Origin: an uncultured virus (IMG/VR IMGVR_UViG_3300025085_000013)
Lineage: Duplodnaviria; Heunggongvirae; Uroviricota; Caudoviricetes
IMG/VR virus record: IMGVR_UViG_3300025085_000013
Coordinates: 51,718 to 71,717 of that record
DNA length: 20,000 bases
Direction: 5' to 3' (one strand)
Each line of letters opens with the position of its first letter. Within the stretch, counting starts at the first letter, position 1. The notes under the pieces were generated by a model. The model worked only from the letters and a program-made list of their open reading frames with translations, made no database searches and was not told the DNA's origin. Shown here in pieces: positions 2,628 through 20,000 of this stretch. A program made the translations under genes and the position numbers.

Positions 2628-5600
2628 TTATGATGGATCACTGATAAATACCTTATATGTAATATTGACTTCATCTAGCTCCAAAGTTCCACCTTTACTA
2701 GCTGCAAACCCCAAGAAAATCCTTGTAGTTGATGGATTAACGGGTACACTAATATTAAAGCTTGCTGTGCCACATAAGAATTTTCCAGCATTTACATCTT
2801 GGTCGTCAAAGACGGTAAATTGAGCATTAGAGAATGTTATACCATCATCAGGCCCTAAGCCAGTTAAGGCCATCATGTCATCGCCGGTTCCGCCGGTTGA
2901 TGGAGGAATTATATCACCACATTCCCACGTCCACATTTTCACATGAAAATCACCAGTATTTGAAACACCTGTATTATTTGTAAAAACAGTGAAGTACACA
3001 TTGTATTGTTTACTACCAGCTACAACCGATTCATTTGGTACTACACCACAGGTCATGGTTGTAGGTCTTGCTTGATCAGCCCTGGTAGGCCCATGAGCTC
3101 CCACAGATGTTATTTCACCAATTACTATACCGCCTGGGTAAGAACCTCCTTGTACCGTCCTAGCCCAAATCGAATCAGACCAACCACCTAGGAGTGCCAA
3201 TCCGCCACTAGAAGCCGCCGCATCACCTACCTGCCATCCAGCAGTATTGTAATTAGGAAGACCATCACTTACTACTATAGAACTTTCAAATTGAGGAGCA
3301 ATTGAAGTTCCGCTGCCTCCTGTTATACCTTGTGTACCTTGTGTACCAGTAGTACCTTGTACTCCTGTTATGTTATAAGATATTGAATATGTATCACCTG
3401 CAGCAAATTGCCCGTCACCAGCAATATATTGAAGAGCGATTAAGAGGGAATTGGTACCGGAGGTTGGATTACCATTTACTAAATAGATACCGAATTGTGA
3501 CGGATCATCTACTTTATATAAAGCTATTTGATCACCTGAAGAGATTCCTGCTAACCAACCATCAACGACAGAGGCATTAGCATCAGTTTTTGAAATATTT
3601 ACAAGTGATGCTAATGATGGGTCATTATTAGAAATATTAAAATCATTATTTGCAGGTGCACCTGCACCGGAAGTTGAATTACAAATCCATCTTAAAGCAT
3701 TTGCACCATCTACACCATTTACACCTACACCTTGAATACCTTGAATACCTTGGGTACCTTGAATACCTTGAATACCTTGTGTTCCTGCAGTACCTGGCTG
3801 ACTAACACAATAAACTACTTCATCATCTCCACTAAAAGTTTGATTAGGTCCACTAACCCATACAACAGTATAAACTAAATTTCCTGTCGGTGTTGTCACT
3901 AGAGTTACTTCATAATTATCAGGATTAGAATAAGTACCATCAGAACTTTGGGAAAATGAAAGTATTGAGCCTACTACTGCCGCTTGATTATTACTAGAAG
4001 TTGGACTAATAAACACCTGTGTTACTAAATTAGCAGTTGCATTATTAACAGCGAATGTCCCAGGAGCGGTACCACCTATTGTAAATACCTCTCTATTTAT
4101 TAGTTCACAACCTGGTCCAACTATTAGTGGACCTGCCTGGTATGTACATACAGTATAAACAGGGCTAGGATTATTAGCTAAAAGAAAAGCACCACTAATT
4201 ATAGTAATATTATAAATTATACCATTAGAAGGTTGAAGGGCCGCAGGAATTTTACTGTCAACCCTAAGTATCATCTTATTAGCTGGTGTAGCTGGATCTT
4301 GTATAGTAATCGTAGCGTTTTCATTTAATGCATTATCTCCAATAAACTGACAACCTGAAGTATTACCGATGAATACCTGCGTTGGTGTTGAGTTATCAAC
4401 TTGTACATATTGTTGTACAGTAGATGAAAATCCATTATTAAAAAACGCAGTAGGAGTAAAACACCCACCTTCTGCGCCGGTTGTTCCTTGTGTTCCTTGA
4501 TCACCAGTTATACCTTGTGTTCCTTGTAAACCAGTGATACCTTGAATACCTTGAGTTCCAGTACCTTCAATACCTTGTAAACCTTGAGTTCCTTGTAAAC
4601 CAGTGATACCTTGAATACCTTGAGTACCTTGAGTTCCTGTGCCTTCAATACCTTGAGTTCCTTGTAAACCTTGAATACCTTGTAAACCAGTTATACCTTG
4701 TGTTCCTTGTAAACCAGTGATACCTTGAATACCTTGAATTCCAGTTCCAGTTATACCTTGGGTTCCTTGTGTTCCTTGTAAACCGGTTATACCTTGAATA
4801 CCTTGAGTTCCTGTACCTTCAATACCTTGTGTACCTTGAGTTCCTTGTAAACCAGTGATACCTTGTAAACCAGTTATACCTTGTATACCGGTACCAGTTA
4901 TACCTTGTGTTCCTTGTGTTCCTTGAATACCAGTGATACCTTGAATACCTTGAGTTCCAGTTCCAGTTATACCTTGGGTTCCTTGCGTTCCTTGTGCTGA
5001 AACACTACCTGCTATACCTTGTATACCTTGTAAACCAGTTATACCTTGAGTTCCAGTTATACCTTGTATACCGGTACCAGTTATACCTTGTGTTCCTTGT
5101 GTTCCTTGAATACCAGTGATACCTTGAATGCCTTGTGTACCTGTACCTTCAATACCTTGTGTACCTTGAGTTCCTTGCAAACCAGTGATACCTTGAATAC
5201 CTTGAGTTCCAGTTCCAGTTATACCTTGAGTTCCTTGTGTTCCTTGAGCCGAAACACTACCTGCTATACCTTGTATACCTTGTAAACCAATTATACCTTG
5301 AATACCCTGAGTTCCAGTTCCAGTTATACCTTGGGTTCCTTGTGTTCCTTGAGCCGAAACGCTACCTGCTATACCTTGTATACCTTGTAAACCAGTTATA
5401 CCCTGAGTTCCAGTTCCAGTAATACCTTGTGTACCTTGTGTTCCTTGAGCCGAAACGCTACCTGCTATACCTTGTATACCTTGTAAACCAGTTATACCTT
5501 GTGCACCTGTACATCCAGCGGTATCAAATCTAACTTCATATACATGATCCAGTGTTCCAATACCACTTGGGCCAGCAAGAAAAGTAACAGTTAATTCTCT

Positions 5601-7565
5601 AAATGTTGTAGAAGAAGAGAGGGCATTAGCATCTACTTCCCATTGCCATTCATCACCGGTTGCCGGATCTTCAATATGCATAATTGATCCAGGACAAACA
5701 TACTCCAAGTATCCTCCTCTATTTATACCATTAGAACCTGTCGTACCCCAGTCTGTTGTATTTAATTCAAAGAAAGTAACATTACTAAAATTTGTAGTAC
5801 TATTTCCAATAAATTCACCAGATGTTGGATCAGCTACACCGGTTGTTGTATTTCTTAAATACCAATTACCTAAATAACCAATACCTCCTGTTATACCTTG
5901 AATACCTTGTGTACCAAATGTACCTTGTGCGCCTTGCGCGCCAGTTCCTGTAATACCTTGGATACCTTGAATACCTTGAGTACCTGCACCAGTAATACCT
6001 TGAGTACCTTGGGAACCTGTTATACCTTGTGAACCTATTATACCTTGTGTTCCTTGAGTTCCTTGCGCACCTTTATCTCCTGTTACAACAAATGATATTA
6101 ATATGTCTTCATCCATAGTAAATGGTGCAGTTTCAGTAAATGCAACAGGTACTATTTCTAATTCCCACCATGTACCTGGAGCAGAAGGTCTGTCATATAC
6201 TTCAGTTATTTGCCAAAGTATAAATTCATTTGAATCAGCCTTTGATGATATCCTAACATGCCCTTTAGGTATAGAAGTACTTGATTTTATTGTGTTTAAG
6301 AATGTAGATATGTCAGTTCCAGTAACACCATTATCATTTATAGACATAATGGTAGCTAGGCTTTGGTTTGCTGTATTTAAAGAAGCATAACTAAATCCAG
6401 GATCGTCAACTACTAATGTTGTATTAAATTGATAATCAAAAGTAGCACCACCAAAAGTACCATCGGCTCCTGTTACACCTTGAATACCTTGTGTACCTTG
6501 AATACCTGTAATACCTTGAGTTCCTGCACCTGTAATACCTTGGATACCTTGAATACCTTGAGTTCCTGCACCTGTAATACCTTGAATACCTTGAATACCT
6601 TGAATACCTTGTGTACCTGCGCCTGTAATACCTTGGATACCTTGAATACCTTGAACACCTTGTGTTCCTGTAATACCTTGAACGCCTTGTAAACCTTGAA
6701 TACCTTGTAAACCTTGAATACCTTGAATACCTTGCGTACCTTGTGTACCTTGTGCTCCAGTTAGACCAGCAGAACTAGGTGCAATGTTTATCCAATTATT
6801 ACCATCCCATTGTAAAAGATCAGCATTCTGTACATTAGTTATTGCAACATCATCCAAATAATCAATAAGAGGCTGCCCACTATTTAAATTCTGTAATTCA
6901 AGAGCACCTTCATCAAAATTATAAACTACGTTATTGTTTGCAGCATCCAATTGGATTTCTAACACTTCACCAGTACCGGTAACATTAGTTACGTTAAGCC
7001 CTCTGAATGTTAAATCTTGGCCGCTCATCCCAGCAAATAAATCTTGGCCACCTATTCCTATATTTAAACCTTGATTTACCTCGCCTGCATTACCATTATT
7101 TATTATCTTAATTGCCTTAACTGTATTGTCATATTGAAAACTAATACCTGGGCCTGCTATTAATCTAAGAGTATCATTATCAGTTGTAGACGCTAATGTA
7201 AAATCGAGACCTGCTGCGAGGGCTGGTGTTGGGCCAGTATAATTAACTAATACTTTACCATACCCATTTGATCCACTTACTGTTATATCACCAGTACCTA
7301 TACCTCCGATGATATCCCATTCATTAGTATCAAACGAGCCTTGTGTTGTTCTTTTATTAGCTCTCCACCAAGTTAAGGTTTCTTCCGGAGTCCCAGTAGC
7401 ACTAACAACTTCAACTGGGTGATATACTACATGCCCGGTATCGTAAGACCTGTTATCTACCCATGGGTTTGCTACTGCCTTGAAGTTTTCATCTACCTCT
7501 CCGTTAAAAAGTTCTCTTTGAACCTCAGTTCTGTAGATGATGTATTCTTTTAGATTGAATGCCAT
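2628..7565 (-). CDS. Collagen-like (Gly-X-Y) repeat protein, probable tail/head fibre or adhesin (1645 aa)
   Basis: Five blocks of GIQ/GTQ/GIT/GLQ triplets alternate with beta-rich globular domains. N-terminal W-x5-Y-x2-G-x-VVY motif resembles CBM5/12. TGAATAAATA motif upstream at 7583-7592. Confidence 0.85.
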   Translation of the reverse strand: MAFNLKEYIIYRTEVQRELFNGEVDENFKAVANPWVDNRSYDTGHVVYHPVEVVSATGTPEETLTWWRANKRTTQGSFDTNEWDIIGGIGTGDITVSGSNGYGKVLVNYTGPTPALAAGLDFTLASTTDNDTLRLIAGPGISFQYDNTVKAIKIINNGNAGEVNQGLNIGIGGQDLFAGMSGQDLTFRGLNVTNVTGTGEVLEIQLDAANNNVVYNFDEGALELQNLNSGQPLIDYLDDVAITNVQNADLLQWDGNNWINIAPSSAGLTGAQGTQGTQGIQGIQGLQGIQGLQGVQGITGTQGVQGIQGIQGITGAGTQGIQGIQGIQGITGAGTQGIQGIQGITGAGTQGITGIQGTQGIQGVTGADGTFGGATFDYQFNTTLVVDDPGFSYASLNTANQSLATIMSINDNGVTGTDISTFLNTIKSSTSIPKGHVRISSKADSNEFILWQITEVYDRPSAPGTWWELEIVPVAFTETAPFTMDEDILISFVVTGDKGAQGTQGTQGIIGSQGITGSQGTQGITGAGTQGIQGIQGITGTGAQGAQGTFGTQGIQGITGGIGYLGNWYLRNTTTGVADPTSGEFIGNSTTNFSNVTFFELNTTDWGTTGSNGINRGGYLEYVCPGSIMHIEDPATGDEWQWEVDANALSSSTTFRELTVTFLAGPSGIGTLDHVYEVRFDTAGCTGAQGITGLQGIQGIAGSVSAQGTQGTQGITGTGTQGITGLQGIQGIAGSVSAQGTQGTQGITGTGTQGIQGIIGLQGIQGIAGSVSAQGTQGTQGITGTGTQGIQGITGLQGTQGTQGIEGTGTQGIQGITGIQGTQGTQGITGTGIQGITGTQGITGLQGIQGIAGSVSAQGTQGTQGITGTGTQGIQGITGIQGTQGTQGITGTGIQGITGLQGITGLQGTQGTQGIEGTGTQGIQGITGLQGTQGTQGITGTGIQGIQGITGLQGTQGITGLQGIQGLQGTQGIEGTGTQGTQGIQGITGLQGTQGLQGIEGTGTQGIQGITGLQGTQGITGDQGTQGTTGAEGGCFTPTAFFNNGFSSTVQQYVQVDNSTPTQVFIGNTSGCQFIGDNALNENATITIQDPATPANKMILRVDSKIPAALQPSNGIIYNITIISGAFLLANNPSPVYTVCTYQAGPLIVGPGCELINREVFTIGGTAPGTFAVNNATANLVTQVFISPTSSNNQAAVVGSILSFSQSSDGTYSNPDNYEVTLVTTPTGNLVYTVVWVSGPNQTFSGDDEVVYCVSQPGTAGTQGIQGIQGTQGIQGIQGVGVNGVDGANALRWICNSTSGAGAPANNDFNISNNDPSLASLVNISKTDANASVVDGWLAGISSGDQIALYKVDDPSQFGIYLVNGNPTSGTNSLLIALQYIAGDGQFAAGDTYSISYNITGVQGTTGTQGTQGITGGSGTSIAPQFESSIVVSDGLPNYNTAGWQVGDAAASSGGLALLGGWSDSIWARTVQGGSYPGGIVIGEITSVGAHGPTRADQARPTTMTCGVVPNESVVAGSKQYNVYFTVFTNNTGVSNTGDFHVKMWTWECGDIIPPSTGGTGDDMMALTGLGPDDGITFSNAQFTVFDDQDVNAGKFLCGTASFNISVPVNPSTTRIFLGFAASKGGTLELDEVNITYKVFISDPS
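4480..5510 (-). repeat. Intragenic 9-bp-period collagen repeat tract with higher-order duplicated units
   Basis: (ccttgNNNN)-type periodicity; the unit encoding GIQGIAGSVSAQGTQGTQGITGTG occurs four times (near 5000, 5255, 5360, 5455). Confidence 0.9.
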
Positions 7566-15842: not shown

Positions 15843-16043
15843 TTAAGACCTTTTTTGCTCTTGGTCTCTGAGTTTTTGAATGTAGATTGCTTTAAGTTTT
15901 TGCTCTCTTTTCTTAACGGAAGGTTTCGTATATTCCTTCCTTTCTCTAATACTTCTAATTTGCTTAGTTCTCTTTTGTTTCTGTTTATACTTCTTAAGCA
16001 TTTTATCAATAGAGTCTTTACCACTGTTTTTAATTATAATCAT
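15843..16043 (-). CDS. rpsU: Ribosomal protein bS21, Bacteroidota-type (66 aa)
   Basis: MIIIKNSGKDSIDKMLKKYKQK...RKEYTKPSVKKR...KAIYIQ. The true start is the ATG at 16043; the ORF-track extension runs through the tRNA. Confidence 0.9.
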   Translation of the reverse strand: MIIIKNSGKDSIDKMLKKYKQKQKRTKQIRSIRERKEYTKPSVKKREQKLKAIYIQKLRDQEQKRS

Positions 16044-16071
16044 ATAGTATATATTTAGTAGCTTAACAATG

Positions 16072-16144
16072 TTGTGCCTGAAGGGCTCGAACCTCCACTC
16101 TTCTGGACCAAAACCAGACGTGTTGCCAGTTACACCAAGGCACA
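16072..16144 (-). tRNA. tRNA-Gln(UUG)
   Basis: Cloverleaf: acceptor TGTGCCT/AGGCACA, D arm GTGT/ACAC, anticodon arm TCTGG-TTTTGGT-CCAGA, T arm GGAGG-TTCGAGC-CCTTC. U1-A72 pair; CCA not encoded. Confidence 0.95.
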
Positions 16145-17490: not shown

Positions 17491-17500
17491 TATATTATTT

Positions 17501-17527
17501 ATTATATGGAAAAAAGAGATAAGGTTT
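17501..17527 (-). promoter_or_regulatory. Putative promoter AAAC-N17-TATAAT
   Basis: GTTT at 17524-17527 and ATTATA at 17501-17506 with a 17-nt spacer. Confidence 0.65.
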
Positions 17528-17533
17528 AAGCAC

Positions 17534-17565
17534 AAAAAAACCCAGGGTCCTAGAATCCTGGGTTT
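17534..17565 (-). terminator. Intrinsic terminator
   Basis: AAACCCAGG...CCTGGGTTT stem followed by a U-tract on the minus strand, downstream of the beta-barrel gene. Confidence 0.85.
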
Positions 17566-17585
17566 CTTTATATATGTAAATTAGA

Positions 17586-18014
17586 TTAGAATCTTAATCC
17601 AAGTCCTAATGTTAAATTTGTTGTTTTATTCCCAGTGTGGTAAACCACTTTAGGGTCAACGAAAATAGCATCTTTATGGAATGTGAACATTTTACCTAAA
17701 CCTAATTCTAGGTTATCAGTTTCAAATTCACTCATAGCAGCATATAGGAAAAAATCCTGGCCACCTGCGTTCATAAAATACCTTGCATGTACGTCTAATG
17801 CAAGATCTTCAGTTGAGTCAGCTTGAGCAATACCTAAACCTACCATAAGTTTATCGGATACTCCGTAACCTAAAGTTGGTGTCATTGACCATTCTGTCCA
17901 TGCAACATTTGCAACGTCACCAGTACCTACGTACCAATCACCTTTTGCATTTTGCGCGTTTGCTCCAAAACCTACTAGGATTGTTAGAGCGAAAGTTAAA
18001 ATTAAATTTTTCAT
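17586..18014 (-). CDS. Small outer-membrane beta-barrel protein (Bacteroidota-like)
   Basis: Signal peptide ending ANA|Q, amphipathic beta-strands, and C-terminal beta-signal LGLGLRF. Confidence 0.8.
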   Translation of the reverse strand: MKNLILTFALTILVGFGANAQNAKGDWYVGTGDVANVAWTEWSMTPTLGYGVSDKLMVGLGIAQADSTEDLALDVHARYFMNAGGQDFFLYAAMSEFETDNLELGLGKMFTFHKDAIFVDPKVVYHTGNKTTNLTLGLGLRF

Positions 18015-18173
18015 TTTTAAAATTTGTTTTTGTTATTAATTGTTTTCACTTATTATAAAACACTTGAATATTTTGAGAAATGAATCTAGTACTTAAATTT
18101 CCATAAATTTTCAAATGAGTAGCCGTAAACAGACACGTTTACAGTTTTCTTTAGTTTCTTTAAATTATATTTA

Positions 18174-18200
18174 ATTATATAGCATATAATAAATTTGTTT
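18174..18200 (-). promoter_or_regulatory. Putative promoter AAAC-N17-TATAAT
   Basis: GTTT at 18197-18200 and ATTATA at 18174-18179 with a 17-nt spacer. Confidence 0.65.
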
Positions 18201-18245
18201 CAGAACTGTTATAGTATTTATTCAATATGAATCTATTTTTATAAT

Positions 18246-18274
18246 AAAAAAAGGCCAGTTTAAACTAGCCTTTT
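18246..18274 (-). terminator. Intrinsic terminator
   Basis: AAAAGGCTAGTTTAAACTGGCCTTTTTTT on the minus strand, after the hexapeptide gene. Confidence 0.8.
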
Positions 18275-18294
18275 AGATACTATTTTATAAATTT

Positions 18295-18741
18295 TTACTC
18301 TTCTATTGATACAACAGATCCTGATGGAATGGTAGTATTATTAGGAATAGTAACTCCTTCGTTTACGGTTACATTATCTCCTATAGTTACACCATCACCA
18401 ATATTACAATTTAAATCTATAATTGAACCAGCTCCAATATAAACCTGGTCACCTATTACAGTACCTGGTCTTATTAAAGAACAACACCCAACAGTTAATC
18501 CTTTACCAAAAGTAACACCTGTTAAATTATTACACCCTTTAAATAATGTTGAAAATTCTGAAAACCTTAATAATGTAGTTTGTACAACTAATCGTTCTTC
18601 TCCACTCTTAACTGCAATAACCCATTGATTGGTAGCCAATGCTTTATCATAAGTATCTTTATCATATACTTTATATTCATCCGATGGTAGTAATGAAGTT
18701 ATTTTATCTGACCAATTACCAGAAACATAAATATTTATCAT
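18295..18741 (-). CDS. Hexapeptide-repeat (left-handed beta-helix) protein, PglD/NeuD acetyltransferase-like
   Basis: Repeats VIGDQV-YIGAGS-IIDLNC-NIGDGV-TIGDNV after a short alpha/beta N-terminal domain. Confidence 0.75.
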   Translation of the reverse strand: MINIYVSGNWSDKITSLLPSDEYKVYDKDTYDKALATNQWVIAVKSGEERLVVQTTLLRFSEFSTLFKGCNNLTGVTFGKGLTVGCCSLIRPGTVIGDQVYIGAGSIIDLNCNIGDGVTIGDNVTVNEGVTIPNNTTIPSGSVVSIEE

Positions 18742-18771
18742 AATCTTTTAATTAATTTATTGTATATATTT

Positions 18772-19239
18772 TTAAGAAGAGTAATTTATCTTTACATCGC
18801 CTAATGTAGTATCAGTAACCCAATAAGGTGGTGGTGCGGTAACACTATGTAGATAAATTTTCGTTGGCTTATTTTGAATCTCTCCATAAAATTCTTCTAA
18901 CTCTTCTTCAGTCATAGATTCAATCATATCATTTAATACCATATCTAATGCATGTGATTCATCAAACTCTTCTTCTGGTGAATGGCGATCTACGTAAGGG
19001 TCGTGTTTAGGTTTTTTGCCTGGTATAACTGCATAAAGTTTAGAGCCTATTAATTCAGCTACTAAAACATCATCTACATAAATTTCTTTTACTGTGTTGT
19101 ATGGAAGATTGCCTGGGGTTAATTCTTCATATAAGTCTGATTGAGATGAGATGATTTTTGCCACATATGCTTCAGTGTACTTAACATCATACTCAGAAAC
19201 TTTACCATTTAGTGTAATTGTTTTTACTTTGTGTACCAT
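18772..19239 (-). CDS. Acidic hypothetical protein (155 aa)
   Basis: ORF track. Confidence 0.7.
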   Translation of the reverse strand: MVHKVKTITLNGKVSEYDVKYTEAYVAKIISSQSDLYEELTPGNLPYNTVKEIYVDDVLVAELIGSKLYAVIPGKKPKHDPYVDRHSPEEEFDESHALDMVLNDMIESMTEEELEEFYGEIQNKPTKIYLHSVTAPPPYWVTDTTLGDVKINYSS

Positions 19240-19260
19240 TGATATTGATTTATAAAAAAA

Positions 19261-19685
19261 GGAAGACGATGCGAAAGGATTTGAGAATACCTTTATTAAC
19301 GAAAGCTGCTTTATATTAGACTACCACTCTTTGGACTGCCATCCTATTACTTAATTAAACCGGCCGAGGTTCAATCATCGTAATTGATCATCATAATCTT
19401 TAAGTGTACCTTACGCCACATACTCTTTGCGTTGTTCAGTCATTAACCAGGATTCAGCGGTTTGCTTACCTGGAAGTCTTTGCAAAATCTCTTAGATTTT
19501 TAATGCGTTAAACCTTTAGCTCTGGTGATTAGCCAGTTCTGAATTTCTCATTTAAGATATCAGTGAACCATCGTCCTAGCCAAGTGCCTTATTCCCTTTT
19601 GCTCAGGAATTTTTCAGCAACGCATCTACACATAATTGGAATAATCATTTAGGAGCTACCTAAAGCTTTCCGTTCTGTGCCTTCC
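19261..19685 (-). ncRNA. Candidate large structured non-coding RNA (~425 nt), family unknown
   Basis: No ORF of 60 aa or more. Terminal helix GGAAGGC/GUCUUCC followed by U7, nested long-range helices and at least six hairpins. G-U pairs favour the minus strand; promoter motif directly upstream. Confidence 0.7.
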
Positions 19686-19724
19686 CATAATTTTAAAGAA
19701 CTTATTAATCCGTTTGGATTTATT

Positions 19725-19751
19725 ATTATATACTTAATTTAAAAATAGTTT
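19725..19751 (-). promoter_or_regulatory. Putative promoter AAAC-N17-TATAAT driving the candidate ncRNA
   Basis: GTTT at 19748-19751 and ATTATA at 19725-19730 with a 17-nt spacer. Confidence 0.65.
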
Positions 19752-19753
19752 CA

Positions 19754-19999
19754 CTATTCAGAAGTATTAATTATACCGCCTATGATTTTAGTATCTGCTA
19801 AATGATCAAATTTACCATAAGTATTAATTCTATATCCTGTTTCTATTGGTTCAAATGATTGAATACATAATCCATTAAACTCATCACTGAAGAAGTTACC
19901 TAAGTCTGTATGTTCATTTAAACAAGGCCCTCCGCTTGGATCTACCATACTAATCCATGGATTTGACTTTACGAGATTCTGATATTGTTTTGCAATAAC
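19754..19999 (-). CDS. Hypothetical protein, C-terminal part (starts beyond the window)
   Basis: Frame is open from the window edge (VIAKQYQNLVKSNPWISMVDPSGGP...) to the TAG at 19754. Confidence 0.7.
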   Translation of the reverse strand, partial: VIAKQYQNLVKSNPWISMVDPSGGPCLNEHTDLGNFFSDEFNGLCIQSFEPIETGYRINTYGKFDHLADTKIIGGIINTSE

Positions 20000-20000
20000 A

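Follow-up and report, generated by a model that had tools for sequence, protein, structure and literature searches.

The longest ORF-free stretch of the phage DNA described here encodes, on its minus strand, an RNA of about 427 nt (19260..19686) that, judging from comparative sequence analysis, is built of two diverged manA-like units (Rfam RF01745) held within one closing helix. An earlier note on this DNA had inferred a large, structured minus-strand noncoding RNA with a promoter-like motif and a U-tract end, all of which was upheld, the RNA being conserved as well, and had suggested a possibly undescribed class, which was not: both halves match manA weakly, and relatives exist whose 3' half passes the manA cut-off. 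It is almost certain that this is a real noncoding RNA derived from manA in tandem. The P8 stems of its two units very probably exchange strands in every subfamily, as predicted from covariation and duplex energies. The best explanation overall, which we regard as probable, is a free-standing structured phage RNA that arose by tandem duplication of manA and acts in trans as an RNA-only oligomer. The manA fold and its oligomers were known; the P8 swap, the permuted core, the conserved loop pairings, and the reading of some seed rows given below stem from the present analysis.

The window, i.e., the whole stretch of 20,000 nt analysed, makes up the final 20 kb of a linear 71.7-kb virus record (G000) that is estimated to be 24% complete; the full phage genome is probably near 300 kb. 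Named PHROG families were assigned to 10 of the 32 encoded proteins, with primase, helicase, SSB, baseplate, and head-tail genes among the products, and further genes of the phage specify a DNA ligase, DnaJ, a tRNA-Gln, and the ribosomal protein bS21. The bS21 gene (PF01165, 31.4 bits; 15843-16046, minus strand) lies directly downstream of the tRNA-Gln gene (16071-16144), and bS21 was found on 6 of 12 related RNA-bearing records, on five of them above cut-off. In the available part of PMC9723584, hosts among the Bacteroidetes are predicted for the 293-331-kb bS21 phages of that study, but different phyla are named as hosts of further bS21 phages. The carriers of the RNA are probably marine jumbo phages infecting Bacteroidota, a host assignment that is helped by the presence of one RNA of subfamily B on a contig of a Flavobacteriaceae MAG. 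Two other minus-strand ORFs of the window deserve mention: one of 1645 aa (2628-7565), probably a tail fibre, with extended G-X-Q repeats of the collagen type, and one of 142 aa (17586-18014), without a Pfam or PHROG match, that has a signal-peptide-like start and a C-terminal Phe and resembles by eye a small outer-membrane barrel.

As the earlier note had seen, no ORF-free stretch of the window is longer than the gap at 19240-19753 (514 nt, against 236 nt for the next internal gap), which is also richer in GC than the other spacers: 0.35 for the gap and 0.39 for the RNA vs 0.16-0.21 in the remaining four internal gaps that reach 60 nt. With the 155-aa protein encoded downstream as query, 17 viral loci were obtained, and the gap is conserved at those with sufficient upstream DNA, at ~88% nucleotide identity even where protein identity is 50%. 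Searching contigs from viral, metagenome, and GTDB collections with sequence patterns gave at least 243 loci, many of them redundant (at least 119 matches in the metagenome part), chance matches amounting to 4 of 25 in one scan and 14 of 34 in another. Fifteen of 101 cores were dropped for absence of the first motif; these include single manA RNAs and a true member of subfamily B, L168, which was later restored. After filtering, at least 81 distinct full-length RNAs were retained, which among the matches listed comprise 36 of subfamily A (that of the window RNA), 3 of A', 36 of B, and 6 of C. Identity to the window RNA is 62-64% for A' and about 45-50% for B.

Three alignments were built. The first, A1, has 40 rows: the window (replacing the identical L001), the other 35 A sequences, L076, and the three A' sequences, whose rows were not counted for P1 because MAFFT misaligns their 5' arm. 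A2 has 33 rows, i.e., 28 of the 36 B sequences and five that the filter had missed, with eight close relatives omitted, and A3 holds all six C sequences. The GTDB scan, which used an exact pattern, returned two matches, one due to chance (L222) and one a type-B RNA (L223) on the Flavobacteriaceae contig mentioned above; within the limits of such a scan there was no sign of a host gene for the RNA in GTDB. The contig carries the end of a ligase gene, small ORFs, and tRNAs, and is possibly a binned phage. The same MAG (G013) contains two bS21 genes, scoring 57.6 and 38 bits, which would fit a phage contig that was binned with it.

The relation to manA is visible as a weak Rfam match. In the window, manA was detected at 19638-19442 with 26.1 bits (E 0.0033; gathering cut-off 55.2), and the second half (19442-19274), when searched alone, gave manA with 16.1 bits (E 0.033). 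Scores of 26-36 bits in A' and B are likewise below the cut-off, and in one Rfam scan of 20 loci manA appeared at E <1 in all but one, or in 18 of the 19 tandem ones. Two A' loci (L186 and L203) show two separate manA matches each, one per half, and in these and in L039 unit 2 scores 29-33 bits. The earlier note could not match the sequence by eye to tmRNA, RNase P, SRP, or 6S RNA, and Rfam gave none of these for the window RNA at E up to 5; nor were group I/II introns, or the tRNA-like ends and tag ORF of a tmRNA, found in it. GOLLD and ROOL are missing from the window at the same threshold and from 36 loci at E up to 0.5-2.

The 3' halves of subfamily C are much closer to the family, scoring 73.4, 64.5, 62.9, and 45.6 bits, so that three of the four loci (L233, L230, and L241, but not L229) pass the cut-off. 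The available part of the manA alignment in supplementary file 5 of PMC2864571 includes at least five rows that begin with the P9 hairpin of unit 1 in a C-type RNA; these rows have no 5' strand of P2 and carry an unpaired P2 3' strand at their end. Such rows, at least five in the part of the 2010 alignment available, can be read as the back halves of type-C tandem RNAs, so that the tandem family may already have been half captured there. The manA score of C is consequently in part circular, because like halves sit in the seed as far as it was available.

The likeness extends to the architecture. The manA core GACUGAAUAA-hairpin-UAAGGU is present twice, with AC/GU and GC/GC closing pairs that covary, and so are, again with covariation, the P4 arm with its three hairpins and the final GGUA hairpin, P9. 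The 5' hairpin P1 and the closing helix P2 are present once each for the whole RNA, and the loop types of the former are those of the seed rows. Shared with manA are thus a 5' hairpin with a GACG, GAUC, or UAGCU loop, a closing helix, a (GA)CUGAAYAA-hairpin-UAAGGY core, a three-hairpin arm, a P8 region with AAAAUCU, a GGUA..AAUCC hairpin, and the occurrence in marine phages. In contrast to manA, the tandem RNA has two cores per chain within a single closing helix, measures ~400-430 nt instead of ~195, and swaps its P8 strands; A, A', and B score far below the cut-off, the neighbours are tRNAs and unrelated genes, and the phages carry bS21 and are not cyanophages. Neither a P8 closed within its unit nor a single unit of ~195 nt, both traits of manA, was found. 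The tandem RNA is best ranked as a variant of manA, since it appears to descend from and work like it, yet fails the family score and the single-unit architecture.

All elements of the fold lie on the minus strand. The ends of the RNA pair with each other (19686-19680 with 19266-19260), and this terminal helix, already proposed in the earlier note, is paired in 99.2% of the cells of A1, where it is nearly invariant, and has 5 of 8 pairs doubly changed in B. It is followed by the 5' hairpin arm, equivalent to manA P1 (19629..19679; apical loop UAGCU at 19658-19654), whose stems covary, and by the equivalent of P2 (19268..19626), in which 19626-19621 pairs with 19273-19268 to enclose both units; this closing helix is 100% paired in A1 with 3 of 6 pairs doubly changed, and 98.2% paired in B with 2 of 5. 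Unit 1 (19447..19620) comprises a CUGAA..UAAGG core with the hairpin 19610-19591, a three-hairpin arm (19584-19514), the P8 region, and the hairpin 19473-19447. Unit 2 (19274..19442) repeats this order with a GACUGAA..UAAGG core and the hairpin 19432-19413, a three-hairpin arm (19406-19325), the P8 region, and the hairpin 19294-19274, and in both units the helices covary. Covariation among homologues thus bears out a structured RNA: a first model, whose P8 helices were later replaced, has 98.2% of the cells of A1 paired and 45 of 121 pairs doubly changed, as compared with 15 in shuffles. In B, the full model has 97.1% of cells paired and 64 of 116 pairs doubly changed, counts that represent few independent events, the sequences being related.

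In the first model P8 was closed within each unit. Such helices are 95.8-100% paired but contain zero double changes, and they were dropped after column scans. The scan of all columns of B revealed that the 5' strand of P8 in unit 1 pairs with the 3' strand of P8 in unit 2. In the window RNA this helix, X (19296..19511), joins 19511-19505 to 19302-19296, while helix Y (19318..19479), nested in X, joins the unit-1 3' strand 19479-19475 to the unit-2 5' strand 19322-19318. Helix X is paired in 86.8% of A1 cells with 6 of 7 pairs doubly changed, in 99.5% with 4 of 6 in B, and in 100% with 1 of 8 in C, and RNAalifold predicted it unaided on B. The figures for Y are 100% and 1 of 5 in A1 (the change coming from one sequence), 100% and 0 of 4 in B, and 91.7% and 2 of 8 in C.

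In A1, the scan of free columns used those unpaired in the first model and was hence blind to X, Y, and the loop pairing K3 discussed below. When all columns of A1 were scanned, 27 of 88,410 helices passed, including K1, K2, and K3 and some chance AU-rich helices, whereas X and Y fell below the filter of 93% pairing plus two changes. Of the 30 pairs in the final long-range set, 13 are doubly changed in A1, vs 2-4 in slid controls. By duplex energy, the swapped pairing beats the within-unit pairing in 30 of 31 distinct segment sets (11/12 in A/A', 15/15 in B, and 4/4 in C), the two forms being tied in L039. In single manA RNAs (165-181 bits) P8 is closed on itself in all five that were parsed.

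With X and Y in place, core 1 would consist of the closing helix, P3, P4-P7 of unit 1, helix X, and the last hairpin, which together make a complete manA core. Core 2 would consist of the first P9 hairpin, P3, P4-P7 of unit 2, and helix Y, and it reads as a circularly permuted manA core grafted on the tip of the P8 of core 1; its absent P2 is replaced by a short linker of 4-5 nt between 19447 and 19440. The strand exchange presumably came after the tandem duplication.

The strands named in the earlier note are all present where it had placed them, but as a set its four long-range helices covary no better than shuffles (122/500), and three of the four pairings have been replaced by others. The second enclosing helix proposed there is 74.1% paired in A1, and the long-range helix AUGCGUUG/UAACGCAU 85.0%. 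The suggested UUCUCA/UGAGAA pseudoknot is 92.9% paired with 0 of 6 pairs doubly changed, and its UGAG lies within a covarying stem. Among the six local hairpins, those at 19648-19664, 19591-19610, 19522-19536, 19447-19473, and 19274-19294 stand, each with double changes, whereas the one at 19484-19500 (94.9% paired, with zero double changes in the aligned columns) competes with two loop-loop pairings. The folding energy of the window RNA is not better than that of shuffles (z -1.16, with 17 of 100 shuffles as good); the plus strand folds worse (z +0.87), and 13 members span z values from -1.25 to -4.6. The nested model evaluates at -74 vs -105.5 kcal/mol for the MFE structure, which differs from the covariation model.

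Four loop pairings are conserved, of the types known from manA oligomers, the loop numbering being mapped from the Rfam consensus and not from the preprint figures. K1, of the L5-L7 type (19390..19529), joins the unit-1 L7 AUCA (19529-19526) to the unit-2 L5 UGAU (19393-19390); it is 99.4% paired in A1 with 2 of 4 pairs doubly changed, all from the three A' rows, 94.9% with 1 of 3 in B, and invariant in C. K2, of the L8-L9 type (19283..19491), joins GAGA (19491-19488) to UCUC (19286-19283) in the last hairpin loop; it is 98.8% paired in A1 with 2 of 4, all again from A' rows, and weak in B (84.8%, none). Only these two reach at least 95% pairing among the 2917 four-pair helices in the columns of A1 left free by the first model. 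K3, of the L3-L8 type (19482..19602), joins GCAAAA (19602-19597) to UUUUGC (19487-19482), with 99.2% pairing and 2 of 6 doubly changed in A1 and 100% with 3 of 4 in B; in alignment A3 it was not found in unit 1 of C. It competes with the local hairpin 19484-19500, which is of similar energy in most rows and is like a small hairpin in single manA. The counterpart in unit 2, K3' (19303..19425), joins GAGU (19425-19422) to 19306-19303; it is 100% paired in A1 without a double change, 91.8% with 5 of 6 in its B equivalent, and 100% with 1 of 6 in C. In both K3 and K3', the L3 of the unit pairs with the strand that precedes the 3' arm of P8.

Two further observations concern these loops. In four B sequences (L115, L136, L199, and L204), the unit-1 L7 has changed from GACA to GAAA and the unit-2 L5 has become a longer loop, with complementarity restored at one pair. 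Furthermore, a loop UCGGCC with the palindrome GGCC (19362..19367) is invariant in all 40 rows of A1 and absent from B and C; its pairing with the GCUGA motif of unit 1, which is 98.5% paired, was rejected, having no double change and conflicting with a covarying pair.

The 5' hairpin loop is of a different kind. It is AGCU in 36 of 36 A sequences, GAUC in 29 and GGCC in 6 of 36 B sequences, GACG in 3 of 3 A', and, by eye, AAUU in 6 of 6 C. A GACG loop can kiss another by means of two C-G pairs. In the available part of the manA seed, rows carry GACG, GAUC, and UAGCU at this position. Switching among GGCC, GAUC, and AGCU is used as a criterion for intermolecular kissing in the part of PMC12286853 that was available, and by that criterion the switching of the 5' loop palindrome supports self-association, which we judge to be probable.

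The following scenario would account for these data. A manA RNA was duplicated in tandem, whereupon the P8 stems exchanged strands, and the loop pairings of manA oligomers were retained with sequences that now differ between the two cores. The RNA would be stable, transcribed from a phage promoter or inside tRNA clusters, and its copies would join via the self-complementary 5' loop, perhaps also via K1-K3 between molecules, to form an RNA-only oligomer to which each chain supplies two subunits. By analogy with GOLLD and ROOL, such a particle might work in trans in the infected cell, offering host factors a scaffold or a decoy, and would not be a switch that controls the gene behind it. As each chain carries two unlike cores, rings with an even number of members should be preferred. 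It is conceivable, if tentative, that palindromic loops let chains with two cores of different sequence and a fixed swap build RNA-only cages, even in their number of members, which marine jumbo phages would produce in abundance; that a closed cage exists in cells is rather doubtful.

The strongest competitor, although an unlikely one, is a monomer with the same fold, in which the loop pairings are intramolecular, the subunit contacts of manA have been internalised, and the molecule either is catalytic or has a protein, a metabolite, or another RNA as its ligand. Covariation is blind to whether a pairing is intra- or intermolecular, X and Y are nested, and K1-K3 do join parts of one chain. A monomer would also explain why a second L5-L7 contact is lacking in A, where unit-1 L5 (GAUG) and unit-2 L7 (GGCA) have no 4-bp partner and a second ring-closing contact is not evident, and it would suit the invariant unpaired motifs of the core. 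What it leaves without a purpose is the 5' loop, which stays self-complementary through its sequence switches, a property needless in a monomer.

The RNA is very likely free-standing and not cis-regulatory. The alternative, a tandem riboswitch or cis-regulatory leader of the downstream gene, is improbable, although Rfam types manA as Cis-reg, PMC2864571 lists it as a probable riboswitch in 5' UTRs, an ATG follows the RNA by 14-36 nt at many loci, and a promoter lies upstream in A. In the window, the downstream gene (18772..19239, minus strand) encodes the 155-aa protein, with its ATG 17 nt past the aligned RNA end and without a Pfam or PHROG match. It follows the RNA in 23 of 37 A loci, a count inflated by its use as the first search query, and a different protein does so in four; the association of gene and RNA is thus not a fixed one. 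Of 86 loci, 8 have the start of a tRNA less than 20 nt beyond the RNA (at 6-19 nt) and 3 a tmRNA-like gene there, and in B several unrelated proteins come next. Such varying neighbours and the tRNA-cluster context argue against a cis switch. A 5'-UTR position before sugar, nucleotide, chaperone, or photosynthesis genes, as in manA, was not found, the neighbours being unknown proteins (that of the window was scanned for families), tRNAs, and the tmRNA-like gene. Moreover, the ends of the RNA pair into a closed domain that covaries in B, and no alternative terminator or sequestering helix was found.

Highly improbable is a separate, new class of large RNA that resembles manA by convergence or chance. 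Such a class would fit the lack of any Rfam family at its cut-off on the window RNA, the identity of only about 45-50% between A and B, and the outcome of a blastn search of A, B, and C RNAs against 50,697 annotated phages, which gave nothing beyond one 44-nt promoter-like match. It is opposed by the recurrence of manA in nearly all of the 20 loci mentioned above, by the agreement with manA in core motif, helix order, three types of loop pairing, and types of 5' loop, and by subfamily C, which bridges to manA and whose 3' halves appear in the available part of its seed. Least credible of all is a conserved DNA element or small-ORF region in place of an RNA gene: the MFE z-score is nonsignificant and a 35-codon GTG ORF lies on the plus strand, but this ORF varies in length and frame among rows (29-41 codons) and is missing in some, the minus strand of the window RNA has no ORF of at least 25 codons and the relatives no conserved one, compensatory changes occur throughout, and the G-U-compatible changes are those of the minus strand.

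Among known systems, the closest are the manA oligomers themselves, for which bioRxiv 10.64898/2026.07.01.735769, in the part available, reports cryo-EM structures of pentamers, octamers, decamers, and a 60-mer, the pentamers being joined by L5-L7', L8-L9', and L3-L8' kissing loops and the cages having been refolded in vitro at about 3 mg/mL. The same three kinds of complementarity are conserved in the tandem RNA as K1, K2, K3, and K3', whereas the RNAs described in that part are single units of <200 nt. The words "tandem" and "in vivo" are absent from the main text as far as available. Strand exchange between like RNA units is also reported there for the EGFOA dimer, but between two molecules of another family in vitro, and not within one chain and fixed by covariation. 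GOLLD and ROOL are, according to the available part of PMC12286853, large phage RNAs found near tRNA clusters that form multimers by kissing loops, some of them palindromic; the tandem RNA is shorter, has a different fold, and matches neither in Rfam.

Literature searches found no publication on tandem or strand-swapped manA, although related variants may stand in preprint supplements. In the available part of PMC10690425 the candidates are at most 151 nt long, and three motifs of the RNA are absent from six of its supplements, though fragments may still be listed in that paper. manA has been an orphan riboswitch candidate since 2010, and RNA-only cages were recently shown in vitro, the available text of the preprint giving no evidence of them in nature; the tandem family gives evolutionary support for cage-type loop contacts and for a palindrome-switching loop. 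If the cage with two subunits per chain is correct, the contacts seen in test-tube manA cages would be under selection, and manA would be a structural phage RNA and not a riboswitch. A natural duplication that is both strand-swapped and circularly permuted would also illustrate how big ornate RNAs grow from smaller ones.

A discrete transcript, expected by the earlier note, is weakly hinted at. Four runs from four studies were used, of 24 listed (shares 0.20-0.30), all of them RNA runs, taken as contigs only and chosen for containing the stretch. In two of these four marine RNA runs, coverage within 17500-20000 is confined to the RNA (listed pieces in 19257-19679 in X5 and a contig at 19299-19676 in X13), although the empty flanks may reflect flank divergence in related phages. 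In the other two, contigs run into the upstream gene: in X1, the summed contig depth reaches 18,964 on the RNA vs 0-93 on 17500-19263, and one deep contig continues to 19966, while X4 has low depth on the RNA.

The AAAC-N17-TATAAT motif noted earlier upstream is indeed there (19751-19725, minus strand), 39 nt before the RNA, and is one of 6 copies in G000, all intergenic, where 0.73 are expected; a looser form precedes 36 of 37 A RNAs vs 1 of 49 A', B, and C RNAs. The other copies lie at 18200, 17527, 16538, and 2615 of the window (minus strand) and at G000:C1:11733 (plus strand), and a similar promoter-like stretch precedes an ORF in the 462-kb phage LR756500. Next come a 5-bp leader hairpin with an AAAC loop (19707..19720, minus strand), of which, by eye, one pair is changed on both sides in L007 and L008, and a conserved box, GTTCTTT(A/G)A(A/C)A (19691..19701, minus strand). 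The strict box pattern precedes 76 of 86 cores, variants precede most of the others, and G000 has one copy. The box presumably resembles rrn boxA. In 13 genomes of the Flavobacteriaceae family concerned, counts of the boxA pattern are close to those of a reversed control. PMC10250234 describes boxB-boxA leaders and, in the part available, gives no consensus.

At the other end, the terminal helix is followed by a U-tract (19254..19260, minus strand), identified from its sequence and not called by the terminator scan. Four loci (L076, L125, L129, and L192) lack it and have a conserved downstream stretch in its place, together with an extra insert between promoter and box; in L076 this stretch is followed by tRNA-Gln. 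The tmRNA-like gene directly downstream of the A' RNAs (L039 1699-1815, L186 648-763, and L203 649-765) is 116-117 nt long and scores above cut-off (54.9-66 bits); it keeps tRNA-like ends, but its tag and pseudoknot region of 300 nt is replaced by only ~43 nt. Other manA-like units below the cut-off occur in L027, L231, L234, and L236 (27-45 bits), L028 giving no match, and L231, L234, and L243 have in common a different conserved module upstream of the manA-like unit.
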